Part shown: one piece after another, positions 4,708-19,720 of the stretch
How the letters are laid out: the number at the start of each line of letters is the position of its first letter
Position numbering within the stretch: position 1 is the stretch's first letter
Source of the DNA: an uncultured Gammaproteobacteria bacterium
GTDB lineage: Bacteria > Patescibacteriota > Microgenomatia > Levybacterales > GWA1-39-11
Length of the DNA stretch: 64,000 nt
Direction of reading: 5' to 3'
NCBI GenBank assembly: GCA_964450885.1
Contig: CAYVFE010000001.1
Location: forward strand, 310,572-374,571
Program-made: the position numbers and the translations under genes
The notes under the pieces: model-generated
The model's database searches: none
What the model saw: the letters and a program-made list of their open reading frames with translations, nothing else
Told to the model about the DNA's origin: nothing

Positions 4708-6075
4708 ATGACAAGCGTGGAATCATCAGAAGGTCAGTTAGCTTCTCCCGACCCGCTTAAAGAAGTCAAAAAAGAAGCAGCGAAAATCATAGGACTAGGT
4801 AGTGAAAGAAATCTTCAGGTATATATAACGATTTCCGGAGCTTTGCATGAAGGAATTCCTTCTATAGATCTTCTGGGAGAAATTGAGAGATCAGACATAT
4901 TGTCTTTGGAGCTTCCTTCAAATGTAGTTAGAGCCTTTGTGCAAGGGACCGAGACAAGAATTGATGATAATCCGTTTTGGGGAACTTCTATCGAAAATTC
5001 AAATTCAGCCGTGGGGGTAAATAATAATCGTGGTGCAGTAAATGGAATTAGGATTCTTGACGATAGGGTGCGTGAGGGGCAGACGATTCCACAAAATGTT
5101 CCCGATGTTGCAATAGGGGCAGCTAATATAAAGTATGGAAAAGGAAAAGACCTGGAGAGAGTTGAGATTTCCGAAAGTACGCTAATAGAAAATCTGAGAA
5201 AACAGCAAGAAGGTTTTGATGATATTTTTCCTGCAAAAACGATGGTGATGCAAGATGGCAAAGAATATTACATCCATATTAATAGACCAGTTGAAAATGA
5301 AGCATCGGCGCTTTTAATTACAGGGGGTTATATGCTCCCGACACAGTACATGATGGAGCGTGGTGAAGATATTTTTGGGGAAGAGACAGGTGGTATTACC
5401 GGAATTGAACTTTGTCAATTTGCGTTAAGTCATTTAATAAGAATGCAGGTCGATAAAGTTCAGGTAGAAGGTATGTTAAAAGACCTAAGAAAGAAGATGA
5501 GTAAGTATGAAACTGGTTCAAATATCAGACTAGTACACCTAGGCGGAGCAGCACACAATCCTAATATTCTGGGTATTTTAGATGAAGTTTTTGGTGAGCA
5601 AGAGGAAGTTAGGATAAATGAATTACATGATGAAAGAATGCCTGAGCCGGCTCTAGATAAGCTCACTTTTTTCGGTAGATTTATTCCAGCTCGGGACGCA
5701 CTAGAATGCGCGTCAGTAGTTGAGGATCAGGTTGTTGTAGATGTAGGCAAAACTGATGCTTTACTGCAAAAATTGGCATCAGAGCATGCAGATAAGCTTT
5801 TAGACTTTGCTAAAAGGGAAAAACTAGCACGGGACTTTGAGGATACTCTGCCTGAGTGTGATAACAGTGGTCAGGTAGAATATTTTGCTGTGCGAAGCTT
5901 GTTGTCTTTAGTTACTCCGGATGAAGTTGAAGGATCAGCATTACCTGATACTTCATATCCTTCTATGCTAGCGGAATACATAATTGAAAAGTATCCTGAT
6001 AAAAAAGACAGGGTAGAAAAAGTAACTGCGCAATATAATGATCGCAGATTTAATTTCCCACCCAGAAGACAATAG
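4708..6075 (+). CDS. Hypothetical protein (455 aa), no recognisable domain
   Basis: Long ORF with coding-like composition and its own promoter-like element. Sits at the edge of the defence cassette. Confidence 0.5.
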   Translation: MTSVESSEGQLASPDPLKEVKKEAAKIIGLGSERNLQVYITISGALHEGIPSIDLLGEIERSDILSLELPSNVVRAFVQGTETRIDDNPFWGTSIENSNSAVGVNNNRGAVNGIRILDDRVREGQTIPQNVPDVAIGAANIKYGKGKDLERVEISESTLIENLRKQQEGFDDIFPAKTMVMQDGKEYYIHINRPVENEASALLITGGYMLPTQYMMERGEDIFGEETGGITGIELCQFALSHLIRMQVDKVQVEGMLKDLRKKMSKYETGSNIRLVHLGGAAHNPNILGILDEVFGEQEEVRINELHDERMPEPALDKLTFFGRFIPARDALECASVVEDQVVVDVGKTDALLQKLASEHADKLLDFAKREKLARDFEDTLPECDNSGQVEYFAVRSLLSLVTPDEVEGSALPDTSYPSMLAEYIIEKYPDKKDRVEKVTAQYNDRRFNFPPRRQ

Positions 6076-6081
6076 CACCCG

Positions 6082-6090
6082 CAGCCTCAA
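6082..6090 (+). repeat. 9-mer cAGCCTCAA (followed by aaa), left flank of the defence cassette
   Basis: Lies 28 nt upstream of the -10 element of the PLD-SNF2 gene. An inverted repeat CTCAAA-N9-TTTGAG follows. Confidence 0.5.
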
Positions 6091-6114: not shown

Positions 6115-9100
6115 GTGTTAAAATCTGGTATGAGTAACTTTATTACGAATAATGGAAATTCAGATCTTAAGCATCGCTTGGTAGAATTGATTAAGAAAAG
6201 TGACGAATTAAAGTTTCTTGTGGGCTTTTTCTATTTTTCAGGAATCAGGGAGCTATATGAAGGACTGAAGTCAAACCCAGATACTGTTATCAAGGTTCTG
6301 GTCGGCTTGAATATAGACAAAGCAGTGTTTGGATTAGTTGAGACTGAGAGTGAAGAAGAATCATCTGATGAAGAAAAAATATATAAGTTTATTGAATCTA
6401 TTAAAAAATCTCTTAATACTGAAGAATTTGATACGGAGGAATTTTACGAACAAGTACGTTTCTTCATCGAGCTTATCCAAAAAGATAAGCTAATCATTCG
6501 TAAAACTTACAACCCAAACCATTCAAAGCTTTATTTATTCAAATTAGAAGAGAATCAGGCTGTAAAAGAATTATTTATAACGGGCAGTAGCAACTTAACG
6601 AGGGCAGGACTTACCACTCAAAATGAGTTCAATGTGGAGATTAGTAGTTATGGCTTTGAAGATGCCGAGAAGTATTTTAATGACCTCTGGGATGAGGCCG
6701 TAAAGATTACAGAATTTCAAGAAATCAAAACAAAATTAGTTCAAATCATTGAAAAAGAAACTTTAATAAAAGATGTTACACCTTTTGAGGCTTTTTGTCT
6801 GGTTTTGAAAACCTATCTGGATACTTTTGAAGAAAAAGAAATAGGTGAGACATTAATAAAAACACTTGAAGAAAATGGGTATACACCATATCAGTACCAA
6901 TTAGATGCCGTTAAGCAGGCGCTGGCTACTATTGAAAAGAACAATGGTGTAATCGTGGCAGACGTTGTAGGACTTGGAAAAACAGTTATTGCTTGTGCAA
7001 TATCAAAACAAATTAACAAACGTGGCATTGTCATTTGCCCCCCAGGACTCATGGGTGATAGAGATGGAGGTTCGGGATGGGGAAAATATCTTGAAGAATT
7101 TGGACTTGATAATTGGAAGGTGTGGTCGCGCGGGGACCTAAAGATGGCTTTGAATTTTGTAAATAATGCAAAAGATATAGAAGTAGTTATTGTAGATGAA
7201 GCTCATTGGTTTAGAAATCAGGATACTGAAAACTACGAATTGCTTAAGAATATCTGTCGAGAAAAAAAGGTCATACTGCTTACAGCAACCCCATTCAATA
7301 ATCGTCCAGGAGATATTCTTGCACTACTAAAGCTCTTTATAACACCTAAGAAATCTACAATAACTCTTGAAAGCAACTTGGTCGATCAATTTAAAGCTTT
7401 TAAAGGAATGTTTGATCGACTCGGCTATATAAGAAAATATAAAAATTCTCTAAATGAATCGAAGAGATTAAAAGCTCATGCCTATTATAGATCTATATTC
7501 GAGGAAGACATCGTTGACCTGGAAAAAGTTAAACAAAAAGCTGGTTATCTTGCCAAACAAATAAGAAACGTTATAGAACCGGTGACGATAAGACGGAATA
7601 GATTAGATCTACAAAATCATCCTGTTTACAATAGTGAAGCAGATAATCTTTCAAAGGTTGATGATCCGAAGGAGTGGTTTTTTAAATTAACAAAAGAACA
7701 GTCGGAATTTTATTCAGAAATTCTCGAAGAATATTTTGGCGATCCAAATGAAGGAGGTAGATTCAAGGGTGCAATTTATCGACCTTTTGAGTACGAAAAA
7801 GGACTCAAATCGTTAAGTACAAATGAGGCTGAAGAAAAATTAAACCAAGATGATAATAGAGCCTTCCAACAACAGAGAAACTTATTCGACTTTATGAGGC
7901 GATTATTAGTTAAACGTTTTGAGAGTTCGTTTGGTTCATTTGAACAAAGCATAAAGAATTTTAAACAGATTACTCTAAGATGCCAGGAATTTGTCAACAC
8001 AACAGGTGAATACATACTTGATCGTTCACTGCTTGAAAAAATTTACGAGCTTGAGGCTGAAGAGATAGAAAAATATTTGTTAGAGTATGAAGAAAAAATA
8101 ACGAATGGTGAATATCCTAAAACTCACAAACGTTATAGAATCAAAGACTTCAAGAACAAGGAAGAGTTTATCCTAGACATTAAAAGCGACATTGACCTTT
8201 TTACAGAAATATTGGACAAATTAGCAAAATTAGAATTGGTGAAATATGACCCAAAAACAGAATGCCTACTGGAGAATTTACATGAGGAGTTCTCCAAAAA
8301 ACCTAATGGTGATGAACCCAAAAGAAAAATTATTATCTTTAGCGAATATGTAGATACCGTTCGATACCTTGAGGAGACACTAAAACAACACTATGGTAAT
8401 CGAATGCTTGTAGTGGCTGGAGATCTACCTAACTCAAAAATTGCCAAACTAAATAAAAACTTTGATGCCTCACATTCAGATCAGGATGATGAATTTGATC
8501 TTCTTTTGACTTCAGACAAAATTTCTGAGGGTTTTAACCTCAATCGTGCTGGAATGGTGGTAAATTATGATATTCCTTGGAATCCAGTGAGAGTAATACA
8601 GAGACTGGGACGAATCAATCGTATTAGTAAGAAAGTGTTTGAAAATCTGAATATTGTAAACTTCTTCCCTACAGAAAAAGGAGCAGAATTAGTAAAATCT
8701 AGAGAAATAGCGGCAAATAAAATGTTTCTTATACATTCAGCTCTTGGGGAAGACTCAAAGATTTTTGATTCAGACGAAGAACCAACCCCCGCAAGACTTT
8801 TTAGTAAAGTTCAACAAAATCCCGACGAACTTGAAGAGGAAAGTTTCTATACAAAAGCATATAAGGAGTATATGAAAATTACCAAAGATAATCCTGAGTT
8901 ATTCGAGAATCTCAAGAATTACCCCCCCCGCATAAAAGTTGCTAAAAACGGAAAGGAAAATGAGCTTTTGGTCTTTTTCACTAAAGGAAGATTGTATGTG
9001 AGCGGAACACAAACAGATCAGGAAAATATAAATCCATATTATCTGGTATTCGAAGATGTATTTGAGAAGATTATTTGTACGCCGAATGAAGAATCTCTGG

Positions 9101-9471
9101 ATTGGAATACAGATAAGTTTTGGTTATCTTATCAAGCTATTAAGGACTTTAAAGATTTCCGTCAAGGAATCGTCAACGAACAGAGTTTGGAACAAAAAGC
9201 ACAAAATAAGCTCGAAACACTTTTAAGGAGCCCCTTAGAAGAATTAATGCCATATAAAGATTTCTTAAGAATCCTGATGGAAGATATATTACATTTTGGT
9301 ACTTTGGCAGATTTTACACTTCGTAGAATTATGAATTTCACTGAGGACAGCACCAAAGATATTCAGGACTTGCGAAGCACTCTTGGAACGGATTATCTGA
9401 CAAAAGAAAAAGATAGGATCAAAGAGCAAAAGAAAGAAATCATTATTGCAATAGAGAATAAGAAAATATGA
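6115..9471 (+). CDS. Fusion protein: N-terminal phospholipase-D-family (HKD) nuclease domain plus SNF2-family helicase/ATPase
   Basis: PLD motif 'HSKLYLFK...ITGSSNLT'. SNF2 motifs I 'VVGLGKTVIA', II 'VIVDEAHWFRN', III 'LLTATPFNN', V 'LLTSDKISEGFNL' and VI 'QRLGRINRISKK'. The GTG at 6115 is probably not the start; the real start is likely ATG 6130. Confidence 0.85.
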   Translation: MLKSGMSNFITNNGNSDLKHRLVELIKKSDELKFLVGFFYFSGIRELYEGLKSNPDTVIKVLVGLNIDKAVFGLVETESEEESSDEEKIYKFIESIKKSLNTEEFDTEEFYEQVRFFIELIQKDKLIIRKTYNPNHSKLYLFKLEENQAVKELFITGSSNLTRAGLTTQNEFNVEISSYGFEDAEKYFNDLWDEAVKITEFQEIKTKLVQIIEKETLIKDVTPFEAFCLVLKTYLDTFEEKEIGETLIKTLEENGYTPYQYQLDAVKQALATIEKNNGVIVADVVGLGKTVIACAISKQINKRGIVICPPGLMGDRDGGSGWGKYLEEFGLDNWKVWSRGDLKMALNFVNNAKDIEVVIVDEAHWFRNQDTENYELLKNICREKKVILLTATPFNNRPGDILALLKLFITPKKSTITLESNLVDQFKAFKGMFDRLGYIRKYKNSLNESKRLKAHAYYRSIFEEDIVDLEKVKQKAGYLAKQIRNVIEPVTIRRNRLDLQNHPVYNSEADNLSKVDDPKEWFFKLTKEQSEFYSEILEEYFGDPNEGGRFKGAIYRPFEYEKGLKSLSTNEAEEKLNQDDNRAFQQQRNLFDFMRRLLVKRFESSFGSFEQSIKNFKQITLRCQEFVNTTGEYILDRSLLEKIYELEAEEIEKYLLEYEEKITNGEYPKTHKRYRIKDFKNKEEFILDIKSDIDLFTEILDKLAKLELVKYDPKTECLLENLHEEFSKKPNGDEPKRKIIIFSEYVDTVRYLEETLKQHYGNRMLVVAGDLPNSKIAKLNKNFDASHSDQDDEFDLLLTSDKISEGFNLNRAGMVVNYDIPWNPVRVIQRLGRINRISKKVFENLNIVNFFPTEKGAELVKSREIAANKMFLIHSALGEDSKIFDSDEEPTPARLFSKVQQNPDELEEESFYTKAYKEYMKITKDNPELFENLKNYPPRIKVAKNGKENELLVFFTKGRLYVSGTQTDQENINPYYLVFEDVFEKIICTPNEESLDWNTDKFWLSYQAIKDFKDFRQGIVNEQSLEQKAQNKLETLLRSPLEELMPYKDFLRILMEDILHFGTLADFTLRRIMNFTEDSTKDIQDLRSTLGTDYLTKEKDRIKEQKKEIIIAIENKKI
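6116..6124 (+). promoter_or_regulatory. Extended -10 element TGtTAAAAT, 5 nt upstream of ATG 6130
   Basis: Sequence match. Implies a leaderless mRNA for the defence operon. Confidence 0.35.
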
Positions 9472-12400
9472 GTGATGCAAGAAGTCTACTAGAATCAATC
9501 ATCGAGGAATATTCAGTAGAAAAGTTCACGAGATTTTTTCGTGAAAAGAGTCAAAAGTTTACACCCCGACAAGAAAGCTATTCCCGTTATGATGATGATA
9601 ACTTCACTAAAGGATTTAAAATAGGTGAAGTAAATTTTTCCGAGATTGACAACCTTACAATCTGCGCTTTTGAAGTTACCAAAGCATTATCCGAAAAATC
9701 TGGCAAAAAATCCCAATATGAACTTGGAAAAAAAATTCTAAAAGAAGCTCAAGCTGGTGCTGGTATTTTTATTTTTTACGATCAGAACGGTAACTTTCGT
9801 TTTTCCCTTATTTATCCAGAATCGATTGGCACAAGAAGACAATGGAACAACTTCCGGAGGTTTACATATTTTATCAGTCATGAATTTACAAATAAGACTT
9901 TTCTTAAGCAAATTGGCGATAAAGAATTTACAAAACTCGATGATATTAAAGCAGCCTTTTCTGTTACTGCAGTTACAGACATTTTTTATAAAGAATTTTT
10001 CGATCTATATAAAAAAATTGTTGAAGCAACCAAGAATTTGAACAAAATTGAAGATGATGATCAAGCACGAGACTTTGTTTTACTCTTTGCCATTAGAACT
10101 ATTTTTCTTGGGTTCATCCAAAAAAAGAAATGGTTAGGAGACGACGAAAAGTTTATACAAACTTTTTATCAGGAATACAAAGATAAATTTGCTAATAAAA
10201 ATGAGTTTTACAGTCGGTGGTTGTCACCATTGTTTTTTGAAGCTCTCAATTCTCCACAGGGGAGAAAAGTAGCATACGGAGATAACGATTTTTCAGAAGA
10301 AACTGCAAAAAAACTTCAAATGGCGCCATATTTAAATGGTGGACTCTTCAGAGAAAAATCTGGATACGATACGAATGGCTGGAAAATTCCAGATCAAGTT
10401 ATTGAAAACTTTTATGATTTTTTGTTCTCCCATAGCTTTACAATAGAAGAAAACTCTCTTGAGGATGAGGATCTTCAACTCAATCCGGAATTTTTGGGAA
10501 TTATTTTTGAGCGTTTGGTTAATAAAGCCGACGGAGCAGTTTACACACCCCGACCAGAAGTTGACCTAATGTGTCGTTTAAGTCTAGTTAAATGGCTTCG
10601 AAAGAATCTAGAATCATCGATAAGGGTTGAAAATCTATATGAACTTTTCTTCAAAGAAAGCGAGAATGAAGATGAGCAAAAAGATGGTAGCTTTTCTCCA
10701 AAAGAAGCGCAGGAGATTTTGAATATACTCGAGAATGTAGCCATATGTGATCCAGCAGTAGGTTCGGGTGCATTCTTAGTGGGCATGATGCAAGTTTTGG
10801 ATGATGTGGAGATAGCTTTAAGAAAGAAAGCGAATATAGAAGTTCACAATGATTTTGAACGAAAAAAGCAAATTATAAAAAAATCATTGTACGGAGTAGA
10901 AGTTAAGGAGTGGGCTGTGTGGATCTGCCAATTGCGACTTTGGCTATCTCTCTTTGTTGATGCACCAGAGGACCTAAAAGACTCAATGGACCCAATTTTA
11001 CCGAATCTTGACTTTAAGGTGAGACAAGGGGATTCCTTGGTCCAGTTAATAGGTTCAAGAAATGTTCCAGTATCAACAGATAATTCTTTAGTAAGTGGGA
11101 GTTTATTAAAAGAAATACGTGAACTTATACAGCTTAAGATTGCTCATTATGAAACAGGACAACCTTCTAAAGAAGATATCGAGCACCGTGAGTATCTTTT
11201 CTATCGAAACTGGATGCAGCAGGAAATTACTAAAGAACAGAACAAATTAGTTCAAATTAATCAAAACGAAAAGAACAATCAGAATCAACAATCACTGTTT
11301 AATGATAAGGTTGATTCAAAACCGATTAACTTGAATTTATTTCAAAAAGAAAGAGATGAAATAGTAGTAAAGCTTGAGCTACTCAGATCTCAACTTAGGG
11401 ATTTACATCGGACAAATAAGCCTTTCCTTTGGCAACTGGAATTTTCTGAAATATTTAGCACCAAAGGGGGGTTTGATATCGTCATCGGGAATCCACCTTA
11501 TGTTAGGCAAGAAGACATTGCAGACCCAACAGGCAAGGTAAAAGACAAAAAGGAATACAAGGGATATCTACAAGAAATGGTCAAGATGGATTTTCCCGAT
11601 TATTTTCCTCCTAAGGCAAAGATAAACGCCCAGTCTGATCTTTACACCTATTTTTACATACGAGCACTTCGTCTTCTTAATGCTCAAGGGGTTCATACTT
11701 TTATCTGTTCTAACTCTTGGTTAGATGTTGGCTACGGTGTGTGGTTACAAGAATTTCTTTTAAATCGCTGTCCAGTAGAAATTATTATAGATAACCACGC
11801 AAAAAGAAGTTTTGAGGCAGCTGATGTAAACACAATCATTTCAATCATTCATGCCCCTCAAAAAAGTGTCGAAGCTGATCATCTAGTTAAATTTGTAGCT
11901 TTTAAGAAATCTTTCGAATCCGCGATATTTACCGAAAACCTTATTTCCATTGAGCAAGAAAAAGAAGTAGAAACTAATGACATTTATCGTGTATATCCAA
12001 TATCAATTACGAATCTCAAAGAAGCAGGCACCGAGTTTGATGGTGATTCTCAAGCAAGGCTGAAAGTGGGTAAATATGTAGGTGATAAATGGGGTGGCAA
12101 ATATTTAGTAGCTCCAGATTTTATATTTAATATTTTAGTCAATCCTTTAGATAGGATCATTAAATTTAAGTCAGTCTTTAACCATTCTCAAAGAAATAAT
12201 CTTTCCGTATTTCAAGATAAAGCTAAAGTGGAAAAAAAAGACGGCACAATTCCTTACCTTTCTTCTATTAAAGACGTCAACACTATAAAAATCGACAAAA
12301 ATAATTTGAAGTATTGGATAAAAGGAAAAAGTAGTGAAATCAGTGATATGTTTGTTCCAGATGTTATATCTAACAGGTTTGTGTCGGATAGGATTTTCTT

Positions 12401-12869
12401 TTTAGAAGGAGGTAATTTTGCAATTTCAGATACCTTTTTTCTGCTAAAAATTACGAGTTTATATAGTAAAGAACAAGTATTATCGTTGTTAAATAGCACA
12501 TTCTCGTTATTGATAACCGAGATATTAGGACGAAAAAATTTGGGAGGTGGGTTATTAACAATTTACGGATATGAACTGGAAAGATTTTATATTGTTAATC
12601 CAACGCTGATTAAAAATAATAGACGTATACTGATTTACTATAAATCATTATCAGAAAGAGTAATCGGATCTGTTTTTGTAGAGTGTGGGATTGATCCAAG
12701 ATCAGAGACACCAATAGATGAACAGGATCCCAAGCCATTATCTGATAGAGCTGAACTGGACAATATTGTTTTTGACGCATTGAAACTTTCTGAAGATGAA
12801 CGTAAGGATGTCTACCGTGCAGTTTGCAGACTAGTTTGGAACAGGATCAGTAAAGCAAATAGCGTATAG
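9468..12869 (+). CDS. Large Eco57I-family (gamma-class) N6-adenine DNA methyltransferase with long N- and C-terminal extensions (PglX/DrmMI/Type IIG-like)
   Basis: Motif I 'ICDPAVGSGAFLVG' precedes motif IV 'VIGNPPYVRQ'. The start overlaps the upstream stop (ATGA), indicating translational coupling. Confidence 0.85.
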   Translation: MSDARSLLESIIEEYSVEKFTRFFREKSQKFTPRQESYSRYDDDNFTKGFKIGEVNFSEIDNLTICAFEVTKALSEKSGKKSQYELGKKILKEAQAGAGIFIFYDQNGNFRFSLIYPESIGTRRQWNNFRRFTYFISHEFTNKTFLKQIGDKEFTKLDDIKAAFSVTAVTDIFYKEFFDLYKKIVEATKNLNKIEDDDQARDFVLLFAIRTIFLGFIQKKKWLGDDEKFIQTFYQEYKDKFANKNEFYSRWLSPLFFEALNSPQGRKVAYGDNDFSEETAKKLQMAPYLNGGLFREKSGYDTNGWKIPDQVIENFYDFLFSHSFTIEENSLEDEDLQLNPEFLGIIFERLVNKADGAVYTPRPEVDLMCRLSLVKWLRKNLESSIRVENLYELFFKESENEDEQKDGSFSPKEAQEILNILENVAICDPAVGSGAFLVGMMQVLDDVEIALRKKANIEVHNDFERKKQIIKKSLYGVEVKEWAVWICQLRLWLSLFVDAPEDLKDSMDPILPNLDFKVRQGDSLVQLIGSRNVPVSTDNSLVSGSLLKEIRELIQLKIAHYETGQPSKEDIEHREYLFYRNWMQQEITKEQNKLVQINQNEKNNQNQQSLFNDKVDSKPINLNLFQKERDEIVVKLELLRSQLRDLHRTNKPFLWQLEFSEIFSTKGGFDIVIGNPPYVRQEDIADPTGKVKDKKEYKGYLQEMVKMDFPDYFPPKAKINAQSDLYTYFYIRALRLLNAQGVHTFICSNSWLDVGYGVWLQEFLLNRCPVEIIIDNHAKRSFEAADVNTIISIIHAPQKSVEADHLVKFVAFKKSFESAIFTENLISIEQEKEVETNDIYRVYPISITNLKEAGTEFDGDSQARLKVGKYVGDKWGGKYLVAPDFIFNILVNPLDRIIKFKSVFNHSQRNNLSVFQDKAKVEKKDGTIPYLSSIKDVNTIKIDKNNLKYWIKGKSSEISDMFVPDVISNRFVSDRIFFLEGGNFAISDTFFLLKITSLYSKEQVLSLLNSTFSLLITEILGRKNLGGGLLTIYGYELERFYIVNPTLIKNNRRILIYYKSLSERVIGSVFVECGIDPRSETPIDEQDPKPLSDRAELDNIVFDALKLSEDERKDVYRAVCRLVWNRISKANSV

Positions 12870-12874
12870 TTGTC

Positions 12875-12883
12875 TAGCCTCAA
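12875..12883 (+). repeat. 9-mer TAGCCTCAA (copy A)
   Basis: Exact repeat of 12895-12903 and 13881-13889. Context ttgtcTAGCCTCAA. Confidence 0.5.
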
Positions 12884-12894
12884 TTGCTTTTGCT

Positions 12895-12903
12895 TAGCCT
12901 CAA
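12895..12903 (+). repeat. 9-mer TAGCCTCAA (copy B), 3 nt upstream of TATAAT 12907-12912
   Basis: Exact repeat. Context ttgctTAGCCTCAA. Confidence 0.5.
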
Positions 12904-12920
12904 GAGTATAATCCTACATC

Positions 12921-13841
12921 ATGAATAGTAATTCATTCAATATTGTTTATAAAAACAGTACTTCAAAAAACAAAGGTTACAGTCTTGAAATCTTAGGAAG
13001 CTCATTAGTTGGAGTTAATAAAATTATAAAGGAATTTGTTGACATTGCAAATTTTAATAACGAATTAGATATTAAAGTTAATAATGTTAAGAACGGGTCT
13101 ATAATTATTGAATTACTGTTCTATATAGATTTTCATCTGCTTTTTACAAACATTCAGGATCTATATAATTTTCTTTTAGTAGCAGATCCAAAACAGTATA
13201 AGGAGGTTGCTGAGTTTTTCTCTAATATAGATGGTGCACATAAATCAATTAACAATTATTACTCTCAATTTCCACTAACTGGTGAGATTAGTATGATGCT
13301 GATAGGGATATATATTGGCCGTATGATGCATATGAGTGGTAAGCAGAAAGAACAACTAACATTGAAAGATGAAAACGGTAATAAATTTCCCATAAAATAC
13401 GCTCAGAGGCTTCAAAATTTTGTGAAAAGAGGAGGATTTAAAAAGGCGCTTAGTCCAATTGTTGAAGGCGATGCAGAAGAAATAATTATGGAGCAGGCTG
13501 AAGTGCGGTTTAAGATTAGCGAAGAGAATATTGAGAACTTTTTACCTGAAGATGATCAAATCTTACCAGAGTATGAGGATGGGATGAATATTACTTTTAC
13601 GGGAAAAATTGTCGCCTTGCAAAGTACGAAAGGTGAGAGTGTTAAATTTAAAGCTAATGAAATTAATTCAGAGCTCTCTCTTTTAACTGCATATCCCGAA
13701 GAGGGTAAGGGCAGCGAGGAGTATGTCAATTTTTACAAAAAGGATATCGTATTAAGATCACAGATATATAGGAAATCTATGTATGTAAGACCAGCAATAC
13801 TAATAAAATCTGTTGAATTAATGCAAGAACAACTTATTTAA
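12921..13841 (+). CDS. Hypothetical Asn/Ile-rich protein (306 aa), third gene of the cassette
   Basis: ORF 52 nt downstream of the methyltransferase. No recognisable motif. Confidence 0.5.
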   Translation: MNSNSFNIVYKNSTSKNKGYSLEILGSSLVGVNKIIKEFVDIANFNNELDIKVNNVKNGSIIIELLFYIDFHLLFTNIQDLYNFLLVADPKQYKEVAEFFSNIDGAHKSINNYYSQFPLTGEISMMLIGIYIGRMMHMSGKQKEQLTLKDENGNKFPIKYAQRLQNFVKRGGFKKALSPIVEGDAEEIIMEQAEVRFKISEENIENFLPEDDQILPEYEDGMNITFTGKIVALQSTKGESVKFKANEINSELSLLTAYPEEGKGSEEYVNFYKKDIVLRSQIYRKSMYVRPAILIKSVELMQEQLI

Positions 13842-13889: not shown

Positions 13890-14057
13890 ATGCCGCATCA
13901 ATTTATGTCAATTATTTGCTTGAAGTGTAATAAGGACTATTGTCCTGTTTGTAAGCCTGCCTGTCCAAAGTGTCATACATTTGATGATGCAGATGAAAAG
14001 ACTCTAAAAATCCGTTCTCAGATGAGGCGTCATGGGATGCTAGAAAAAATGAATTAA
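13890..14057 (+). CDS. Cys-rich micro-protein (55 aa), not in the ORF track
   Basis: Cys pattern CxxC-x4-C-x2-C-x3-C-x2-C in 'MPHQFMSIICLKCNKDYCPVCKPACPKCHTF...'. Own extended -10 element. Confidence 0.3.
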   Translation: MPHQFMSIICLKCNKDYCPVCKPACPKCHTFDDADEKTLKIRSQMRRHGMLEKMN

Positions 14058-19636: not shown

Positions 19637-19720
19637 ATTCTGTATGCAAAAAAGTATAGCACATATGACTTTTTAGCCATGAATGTGGGATTATAGTAAA
19701 GATTGAGGCTATTAGCAAGG

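Follow-up and report, generated by a model that had tools for sequence, protein, structure and literature searches.

A widespread gene pair encoding a PLD-SNF2 motor-nuclease and a Type IIG/PglX-like adenine methyltransferase, a probable two-subunit restriction-modification system

Type ISP restriction enzymes such as LlaGI and LlaBIII combine an Mrr-like nuclease, a Type I-like superfamily 2 (SF2) motor that is driven by ATP along double-stranded DNA, a gamma-class methylase and a target-recognition domain in a single polypeptide, and they cleave by collision. NgoAVII and CglI, on which Zaremba et al. reportedly worked in 2014, are ATP-dependent restriction enzymes in which a phospholipase D (PLD)-family nuclease works with an SF2 ATPase; their nuclease carries a B3-like DNA-binding domain, and both the helicase, which is not of the SNF2 type, and the methylase, an ordinary Type II enzyme, are separate proteins. 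In class 1 DISARM, the gene of an SNF2 helicase (DrmD) adjoins that of an Eco57I-family adenine methylase (DrmMI), a PLD nuclease (DrmC) is a separate protein, and DrmA and DrmB (DUF1998) form the core; BREX is recognized by PglZ and BrxC beside the methylase PglX. Here we analyze a locus built from related domain families in a 64,000-nucleotide stretch of contig CAYVFE010000001.1 (the window). Two forward-strand genes, gene 1 (6130..9471) and gene 2 (9468..12869), encode a PLD-SNF2 motor-nuclease and a Type IIG/PglX-like gamma-class N6-adenine DNA methyltransferase. We find that they form a real, widespread, compact and self-contained nuclease-translocase plus methyltransferase module that is no fragment of DISARM or BREX, and we propose that the pair is probably a two-subunit, ATP-dependent restriction-modification (R-M) system.

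Elements of this arrangement have surfaced before. Among programmed-inversion loci, Milman et al. (2023) list a Type II R-M coding sequence homologous to Cj0031 with an adjacent phospholipase D/SNF-domain coding sequence (PMC9881135). Johnston et al. (2017) described Prevotella intermedia Type IIG genes with an upstream SNF2/RAD54 helicase (PMC5608340); one of these genes, which may or may not belong to the family of the window pair, was assigned GGYGAB methylation from its expression in a heterologous host (PMC5608340). Shah et al. (2019) defined an ‘HKD+Snf2’ cluster, C3a139, of genes beside type III CRISPR loci, with no assigned function (PMC6546367). Rakesh and Krishnan (Nucleic Acids Research, 2026) defined Type-2 BREX-related (BR) systems by an HKD-Swi2/Snf2 effector, together with a DUF499 ATPase, DUF3780 and a DUF1156-type methylase (PMC12839542). 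An earlier reading of the window made from its letters alone (the sequence-only reading) had called the cassette possibly previously undescribed. This is too strong, because the adjacency of genes 1 and 2 is listed in PMC9881135 and noted in PMC5608340, the HKD+Snf2 combination is catalogued in PMC6546367 and in PADLOC, and a related effector appears in PMC12839542. The two-gene system itself is not delimited, named or tested in the searchable literature, where the adjacency is mentioned in passing.

The listing of open reading frames (ORFs) contains three consecutive forward-strand frames at 6115-9471, 9468-12869 and 12921-13841, and these frames, like the motifs quoted earlier for genes 1 and 2, are borne out by the listing, by Pfam and by a motif check. 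The gene 1 stop and the gene 2 start share an ATGA, read as aaaatATGAgtg at 9468-9471 just as the sequence-only reading had it, and gene 2 is predicted to be translationally coupled to gene 1 via this overlap. Gene 1 had been taken to start at GTG 6115 and to encode 1118 amino acids. Its public copy, however, has 1113 amino acids and begins at ATG 6130, and its homologs all open with MxNFITN; we therefore place the true start at ATG 6130.

Gene 1 would be the restriction (R) subunit and consists of an N-terminal single-HKD PLD-family nuclease domain (6463..6690, forward strand), an SNF2 ATPase/translocase (6970..8625, forward strand) and an uncharacterised C-terminal part of ∼250 amino acids. 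Pfam returns significant matches for the PLD, SNF2 and methyltransferase motifs of the pair; in gene 1 these are PLDc_2 at residues 117-192 (29.8 bits, cut-off 27), SNF2-rel_dom at residues 351-535 (2e-11) and Helicase_C at residues 732-837 (3e-17). The whole protein contains a single HxK motif (HSKLYLFK...GSSNLT), and this lies within the PLD-like domain, as in the PLD (HKD) superfamily. The motor has an N-lobe with Walker A (GLGKT) and a DEAH box and a Helicase_C lobe with motif VI (QRLGRINR), the arrangement of the SNF2 family. HxK, GSSNL, GLGK[TS], DEAH and QRxGRxNR are all kept in homologs at 32-41% identity, with the H, the K and GSSNL invariant down to 32%. When compared with the PDB, the gene 1 profile finds CHD4, SsoRad54-like, CHD1 and RapA as top matches, and its closest solved relatives are SNF2 remodellers and RapA. 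The nearest gene 1 relatives come from Patescibacteria, and the RE_NgoFVII family of Pfam (PF09565) is precomputed on many gene 1 homologs.

Gene 2 encodes 1133 amino acids and would be a combined modification and specificity (M/S) subunit with its own target-recognition domain. It matches the Pfam family Eco57I (8e-32; 111 bits, cut-off 25.3) and also MmeI_Mtase and N6_Mtase, and DPAVGSG (residue 428) precedes NPPY (residue 675), which is the order of an Eco57I-family gamma-class enzyme. A PDB search with the single sequence returned no sequence-level relatives; the family profile matches only M.BseCI, including its C-terminal recognition part, and, weakly, MmeI. An AlphaFold2 model (pLDDT 78, pTM 0.70) matches the folds of BpuSI (1e-9), BrxX/PglX (1.5e-9 to 2e-8), CamA and MmeI (6.5e-7) over roughly 800-1200 alignment columns. 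Along the chain, all on the forward strand, we distinguish an N-terminal alpha/beta domain of nuclease-like topology (residues 1-165; 9468..9962), a helical region with an NGGLF motif followed by the methyltransferase core (9963..11957), a hypervariable region (about residues 880-1070; 12105..12677) and conserved C-terminal helices (residues 1071-1133; 12678..12866). Across 120 homologs conservation is high up to residue 900, is largely lost from about 900 to 1070 and returns over the final 60 residues, column identity being 0.24-0.5 in the hypervariable region versus 0.8-0.95 in the core, and tblastn alignments show gaps at the same place. In Thermales, on plasmids of Allomeiothermus silvanus (L021:4840-8170) and Thermus oshimai (L022:5389-9004), the methylase is divided at about residue 868 between one ORF with the catalytic part and another with the recognition and C-terminal parts, and the genes follow each other as M-S-R. 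We read the hypervariable region as the putative target-recognition domain.

The order of an N-terminal domain, a helical NGGLF region, a gamma methylase and a recognition domain is, like the fold, that of Type IIG/IIL enzymes such as MmeI, BpuSI and Cj0031. Gene 2 could accordingly be a complete stand-alone enzyme of this kind, with gene 1 a separate or auxiliary helicase-nuclease defence gene that travels along. Its top PADLOC matches are Type IIG models (5e-47, followed by DrmMI at 2e-29), BpuSI and MmeI are matched over most of its length, and such genes are called Type IIG in the literature (PMC5608340, PMC9881135); moreover, two loci (L015 and L067) have gene 1 without gene 2. The N-terminal domain bears on this directly. 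Residues 1-140 of the model form a confident alpha/beta domain whose strand/helix order resembles a PD-(D/E)xK nuclease, but an invariant or near-invariant D...ExK was not found in residues 1-160 among either 63 close or 55 broad homologs. The consensus of the window's clade at the A1 strand reads VCAFxxxK, no acidic residue is invariant in residues 1-160, and gene 2 has no MmeI_N match in Pfam, while some distant homologs keep an E-x-K in this domain. The catalytically competent PD-(D/E)xK domain that Type IIG/IIL enzymes carry in the same chain is thus not seen in the window's clade, to which this result is confined. We infer that the N-domain is a decayed Type IIG nuclease domain, non-catalytic in this clade. 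As its catalytic residues are not conserved and a PLD-SNF2 gene is obligatorily linked, cleavage is predicted to be ATP-dependent and carried out by the other subunit. We consider the stand-alone enzyme unlikely, since the pairing of the two genes in 43 of 45 well-flanked loci, the ATGA coupling and the co-variation of the N-domain with gene 1, both surveyed below, argue for one system.

Among profiles of named systems, gene 1 is matched by DrmD (PADLOC, 5e-35), BrxHII, HmaA (PADLOC; a partial match of 94 bits), DpdE and C3a139 ‘HKD+Snf2’, the last alone spanning both the PLD and the SNF2 part. The DrmD equivalog NF038317 of NCBIfam scores gene 1 at 144.8 bits, over the helicase C-lobe region only, against a cut-off of 610, and the NCBIfam PglX models score gene 2 at 51.6 bits against 500; neither gene reaches the equivalog threshold of any named system. 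Because the searched profile libraries hold no model for the pair, an annotator would likely label the methylase alone as ‘Type IIG’ and miss the motor-nuclease.

These partial matches raise the question of whether class 1 DISARM (DrmD, DrmMI and DrmC) or a BREX or BREX-related system has here degenerated or been reduced to a minimal fragment, with core genes (DrmA/DrmB, PglZ/BrxC or DUF499/DUF3780) lost or located elsewhere. DrmD and BrxHII are the best named profiles of gene 1, models of DrmMI and PglX match gene 2, and the gene 2 fold matches BrxX (9ewz) and PglX (8c45) at ∼1e-9 over more than 1000 alignment columns. As in class 1 DISARM, an SNF2 helicase gene adjoins that of an Eco57I-family adenine methylase and a PLD nuclease is involved; unlike in DISARM, the PLD domain is fused to the helicase, and the equivalog cut-offs are undershot fourfold. 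DrmA, DrmB, PglZ and BrxC were not found among the ORFs of the window, in agreement with the sequence-only reading, and BrxA, BrxB and BrxL are absent as well; the remaining large ORFs have housekeeping functions (HflX, topoisomerase I, RmuC, SecA, SecD, tRNA synthetases and others). The description ‘DISARM-like’ therefore holds for the shared domain families only, given that gene 1 scores 145 versus 610 bits and gene 2 matches Type IIG models better than DrmMI.

Type-2 BR (Hma-like) systems come closest in their effector. They, too, have an N-terminal HKD endonuclease fused to Swi2/Snf2, which is their hallmark, along with an N6-adenine methyltransferase and a proposed R-M-like logic, but they are built on a DUF499 (BrxC-like) AAA+ ATPase, to which Type 2 adds DUF3780 (PMC12839542). 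The BR methylase is of the DUF1156/PglXI type with an internal recognition insert, whereas gene 2 is of the Eco57I/PglX/Type IIG type with a C-terminal recognition domain. DUF499 and DUF3780 gave no Pfam match on the window neighbors, and no large partner recurs in the homologous loci. With Type ISP enzymes the pair shares its parts list (nuclease, ATP-driven double-stranded DNA translocase, gamma methylase and recognition domain); the label ‘split Type ISP-like’ survives only as a functional analogy. A PLD nuclease and an SNF2 motor here take the place of the Mrr-like nuclease and the Type I-like SF2 motor, the parts are divided between two polypeptides instead of sharing one chain, and the gene 2 fold matches with E ≤ 0.001 include no Type ISP structure.

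We surveyed the neighborhoods of gene 1 relatives in species-representative genomes, metagenomes, viral contigs, plasmids and individual protein look-ups, and scored the ORFs with hidden Markov models (HMMs) built from alignments of genes 1, 2 and 3. The gene 1 relative has a gene 2 relative on its own strand and no more than 5.5 kb away in 97 of the 119 loci; with the count limited to the 45 loci flanked by 5 kb or more on each side, the figure is 43. The conserved methyltransferase partner that the sequence-only reading had proposed to look for is thus present. It is directly downstream (gap of at most 100 nt) in 65 of the paired loci, downstream at a distance of up to 2 kb in 15 and upstream in 17, and a gene 2 homolog follows directly 3' of gene 1 in 9/9 genome loci. 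Loci without a gene 2 relative mostly lack flanking sequence. The surveyed loci span Patescibacteria, Thermales, Bacteroidales, haloarchaea and viral contigs. Since the pair recurs at 23-41% identity on Allomeiothermus silvanus and Thermus oshimai plasmids, in Parabacteroides distasonis and Prevotella nigrescens and on a haloarchaeal Natrinema plasmid, its architecture is judged to be old, with members from Bacteria as well as Archaea. Patescibacteria with small genomes carry the pair especially often.

The two exceptions among the well-flanked loci are an orphan gene 1 (L067) and a Lentisphaerae locus (L015). In the latter (L015/L016:13333-19400) gene 1 is intact, and all that is left of gene 2 is its first 49 and last 33 codons, with AAA_15+DUF3226 and DUF6577+AbiEii genes inserted between the two stubs. 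That gene 1 has outlasted gene 2 here fits a system in which loss of the methylase is tolerated and restriction is targeted via the M/S subunit.

No partner beyond gene 2 emerged. Neighbors of at least 500 amino acids fall into 98 clusters, nearly all singletons, and PADLOC found nothing recurrent among the 56 largest of these beyond GajB-like helicases in at most five. A recurring DrmA, DrmB, PglZ, BrxC or DUF499 partner was not found across the 119 loci, which come from many phyla; the sole DUF1998/MZB neighbor, which would favor a DISARM link, is one convergent YprA-like helicase (L048). On the equivalog cut-offs, the content of the window and this survey together we reject the pair as a DISARM or BREX fragment, and we leave only a very slight probability to a degenerate remnant whose core genes were lost or lie elsewhere. 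The view of a compact stand-alone defence module is thereby upheld. Other neighbors include large serine recombinases, a D5 primase, a portal protein, Druantia DruE, McrBC and AbiEii, and the loci often sit in mobile-element and defence-island contexts. Relatives are found on 26 IMG/VR contigs, and a collection of cultured phages contained no homologs. On IMG/VR contigs, one branch of the pair at ∼30% identity (L116-L118, L127 and L128) is at most a few kb away from a gene for an SU10-like portal, and some members are for this reason taken to be borne by phages or prophages.

Comparison of gene 1 and the individual gene 2 domains revealed an unequal relationship. With identity to the window's copy computed per locus, that of the gene 2 N-domain follows that of gene 1 with Pearson and Spearman coefficients of 0.95 (n = 50), compared with r = 0.44 for the helical and 0.51 for the methylase domain. 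Loci whose gene 1 is 67-71% identical have an N-domain at 57-61% and the remainder of gene 2 at only 27-35%, whereas in loci whose gene 1 identity is 46-48% the N-domain reaches 35-38% and the methylase body 47-55%. In the latter loci gene 2 is upstream, and the co-variation persists although the N-domain is then ∼3.5 kb away from gene 1. Because its identity tracks that of gene 1, the N-domain is likely the docking surface for it, and the pattern suggests that it serves as a docking module for the gene 1 protein. At least two deeply divergent gene 2 ‘bodies’ (helical, methylase and recognition domains) are paired with the same lineage of gene 1 plus N-domain, as seen when the window's gene 2 (9468-12869) is compared with L003, L004, L019, L031, L057, L065 and L066. 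This implies recombination at the N-domain boundary and points to an exchange of methylase-recognition bodies on a constant chassis of gene 1 and N-domain.

Recognition domains also appear to be shuffled. About ten loci, mostly distant ones, carry a serine invertase together with short TaqI_C-only ORFs that lie 3' of gene 2. In one viral contig (L125:15642-17420), near a serine invertase, three inverted-repeat pairs of 100-111 nt and 95-100% identity connect the 3' end of the gene 2 homolog with downstream silent TaqI_C cassettes, an arrangement that is, by its repeat architecture, a putative recognition-domain shufflon. The commonest extra gene in the survey codes for a Schlafen/AlbA_2 + HATPase_c_4 + helix-turn-helix (HTH) protein of ∼474 amino acids; found at 10 loci, it mostly sits inserted between genes 1 and 2 (for example L019:13380-14804).

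Invertible recognition cassettes are also a feature of phasevarions, and among solved structures gene 1 is nearest to remodellers and RapA. The pair might hence not cut at all, and act instead as a phase-variable epigenetic regulator with a remodeller-like partner or as a BREX-like exclusion or abortive system whose SNF2 motor works without site-specific cleavage; BREX uses a related methylase and is not known to cleave. The strict conservation of the HKD nuclease residues speaks against a non-cutting role, as do the common defence and mobile contexts (Druantia DruE, GajB-like helicases, McrBC, AbiEii, recombinases and viral contigs), and we judge it improbable.

For the two-subunit R-M system that we favor, we propose the following mechanism. 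Gene 2 would be the modification and specificity subunit: its C-terminal recognition domain would read a short, probably asymmetric DNA sequence, and its gamma-class core would methylate an adenine at this site and so mark host DNA as self. Gene 1 would be the restriction subunit, in which an SNF2-type double-stranded DNA translocase is joined to the N-terminal single-HKD PLD nuclease, and it would be recruited by the former Type IIG nuclease domain of gene 2, now non-catalytic. SNF2 enzymes move along duplex DNA without unwinding it, and at an unmethylated site the complex would translocate along DNA at the expense of ATP. Nucleases with a single HKD motif, Nuc and BfiI among them, build their one active site as dimers; cleavage would accordingly occur when two HKD domains join, for example when two complexes converge, a model borrowed from the collision of Type ISP enzymes. 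Where Type III, Type ISP and MmeI-like enzymes methylate a single strand of an asymmetric site, the host is spared after replication by a two-site requirement or by other means. The sequences show the domains, the conserved catalytic motifs, the close and very common pairing, the lack of further conserved partners, the variable and shuffled recognition domain and the co-variation of the N-domain with gene 1; complex formation, methylation-sensitive restriction, translocation and cleavage dependent on dimerisation or collision are what we infer.

Several points weigh against this reading. The PLDc_2 score of gene 1 barely exceeds its cut-off. Several distant gene 2 homologs (Bacteroidales-like and viral) retain E-x-K at the equivalent N-domain strand, and in these branches the methylase subunit may therefore still be a nuclease and gene 1 an accessory. 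The surveyed loci were retrieved via gene 1 patterns with crude ORF calling, and the set is not strictly non-redundant. Finally, the co-variation is measured as identity to one reference across phylogenetically related loci, and it could stem in part from a recombination breakpoint rather than from a physical interface.

A bolder form of the proposal would have the pair represent a distinct, ancient and very widespread class of ATP-dependent R-M systems in Bacteria and Archaea, in which a dead nuclease domain serves as docking adaptor, bodies are swapped by recombination on an ‘R + adaptor’ chassis, and a single HKD motif requires two motors to meet, a new solution to the hemimethylation problem at asymmetric sites. 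We regard this as possible but tentative, and would sooner doubt than assert it. If confirmed, the pair would add a common and compact two-gene class to the R-M repertoire, assign a defined function in prokaryotic restriction to a motor of the SNF2 remodeller type, provide a natural case of a nuclease domain recycled as a subunit adaptor, and be a source of new programmable adenine methylases and specificities. The defence repertoires of Patescibacteria, in which the pair is frequent, are poorly understood. Conceptually the system holds no surprise: its parts and its logic are already familiar from R-M, DISARM and BREX-related systems.

The locus had been described as a two-to-three-gene system, of which two genes stand. 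Gene 3 (12921..13841, forward strand) encodes a 306-residue OB-fold protein and had been said to lack a recognizable domain; in line with this, it has no Pfam or PADLOC match. Its structure model is confident, with a C-terminal OB fold, and a fold search against a viral library gave weak full-length matches only. A word-index homolog search returned the gene 3 protein alone, and an exhaustive search identified a family of 102 cluster representatives of ∼300 amino acids, all unannotated. Relatives are found between hsdS and hsdR of Type I R-M operons in two independent contexts (L025:1595-2545 and L026:8001-8930), beside an HTH gene and a small PLD gene, and among housekeeping genes. The gene 3 family HMM found no member beside any other gene 1 homolog in the survey. 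On account of its absence there and the Type I R-M or unrelated contexts of its relatives, we reject a third-subunit role for gene 3 and class it as a passenger or an accessory, not a conserved component of the system; its family may be an R-M-associated accessory. By direct reading, gene 3 is preceded by a promoter-like site with TTGCTT at 12884-12889, a 17-nt spacer and TATAAT at 12907-12912, 8 nt before the ATG.

The G+C content is 0.31-0.37 over about 6200-13800 and ∼0.39-0.42 in the flanks. This drop and the housekeeping surroundings make the cassette look like an acquired island in a bacterium of small genome, which horizontal acquisition would fit. A 455-residue ORF (4708-6075, forward strand) immediately upstream of gene 1 has no Pfam match and no tblastn counterpart in related loci, and was rejected as a component of the system. 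An Rfam search of the whole window returned no RNA elements. Two features of the sequence-only reading are corrected here. Its leaderless-style promoter is a TGtTAAAAT at 6116-6124, 5 nt ahead of the gene 1 ATG, seen by direct reading only, and a consensus promoter scan found no excess of sites. Its flanking repeats are copies of the 8-9-nt motif (T)AGCCTCAA, which has further copies in other parts of the window, such as one ahead of the topoisomerase gene, and is not specific to the cassette. Long repeats, whether direct or inverted, do not border the cassette; those found are short and at chance level, and we rejected the repeats as marks of a mobile cassette.

The motif itself is nevertheless frequent. 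TAGCCTCAA has 4 copies in the window compared with 0.59 expected, and AGCCTCAA has 10 compared with 2.45. Copies lie at 12875, 12895 and 13881 on the forward and at 19703 on the reverse strand, and also at 6083, 2454, 41824 and 42050. Exact 9-mer copies stand directly 5' of gene 3, of a 55-residue ORF and of topoisomerase I, and one copy sits between a TATAAT and an ATG; TAGCCTCAA/AGCCTCAA may be an organism-specific promoter or 5'-end element. The 55-residue ORF (13890-14057, forward strand), directly 3' of gene 3, is cysteine-rich and Zn-ribbon-like (CLKCNKDYCPVCKPACPKCH); it is preceded by TGCTATAAT and annotated as a gene in a public assembly.

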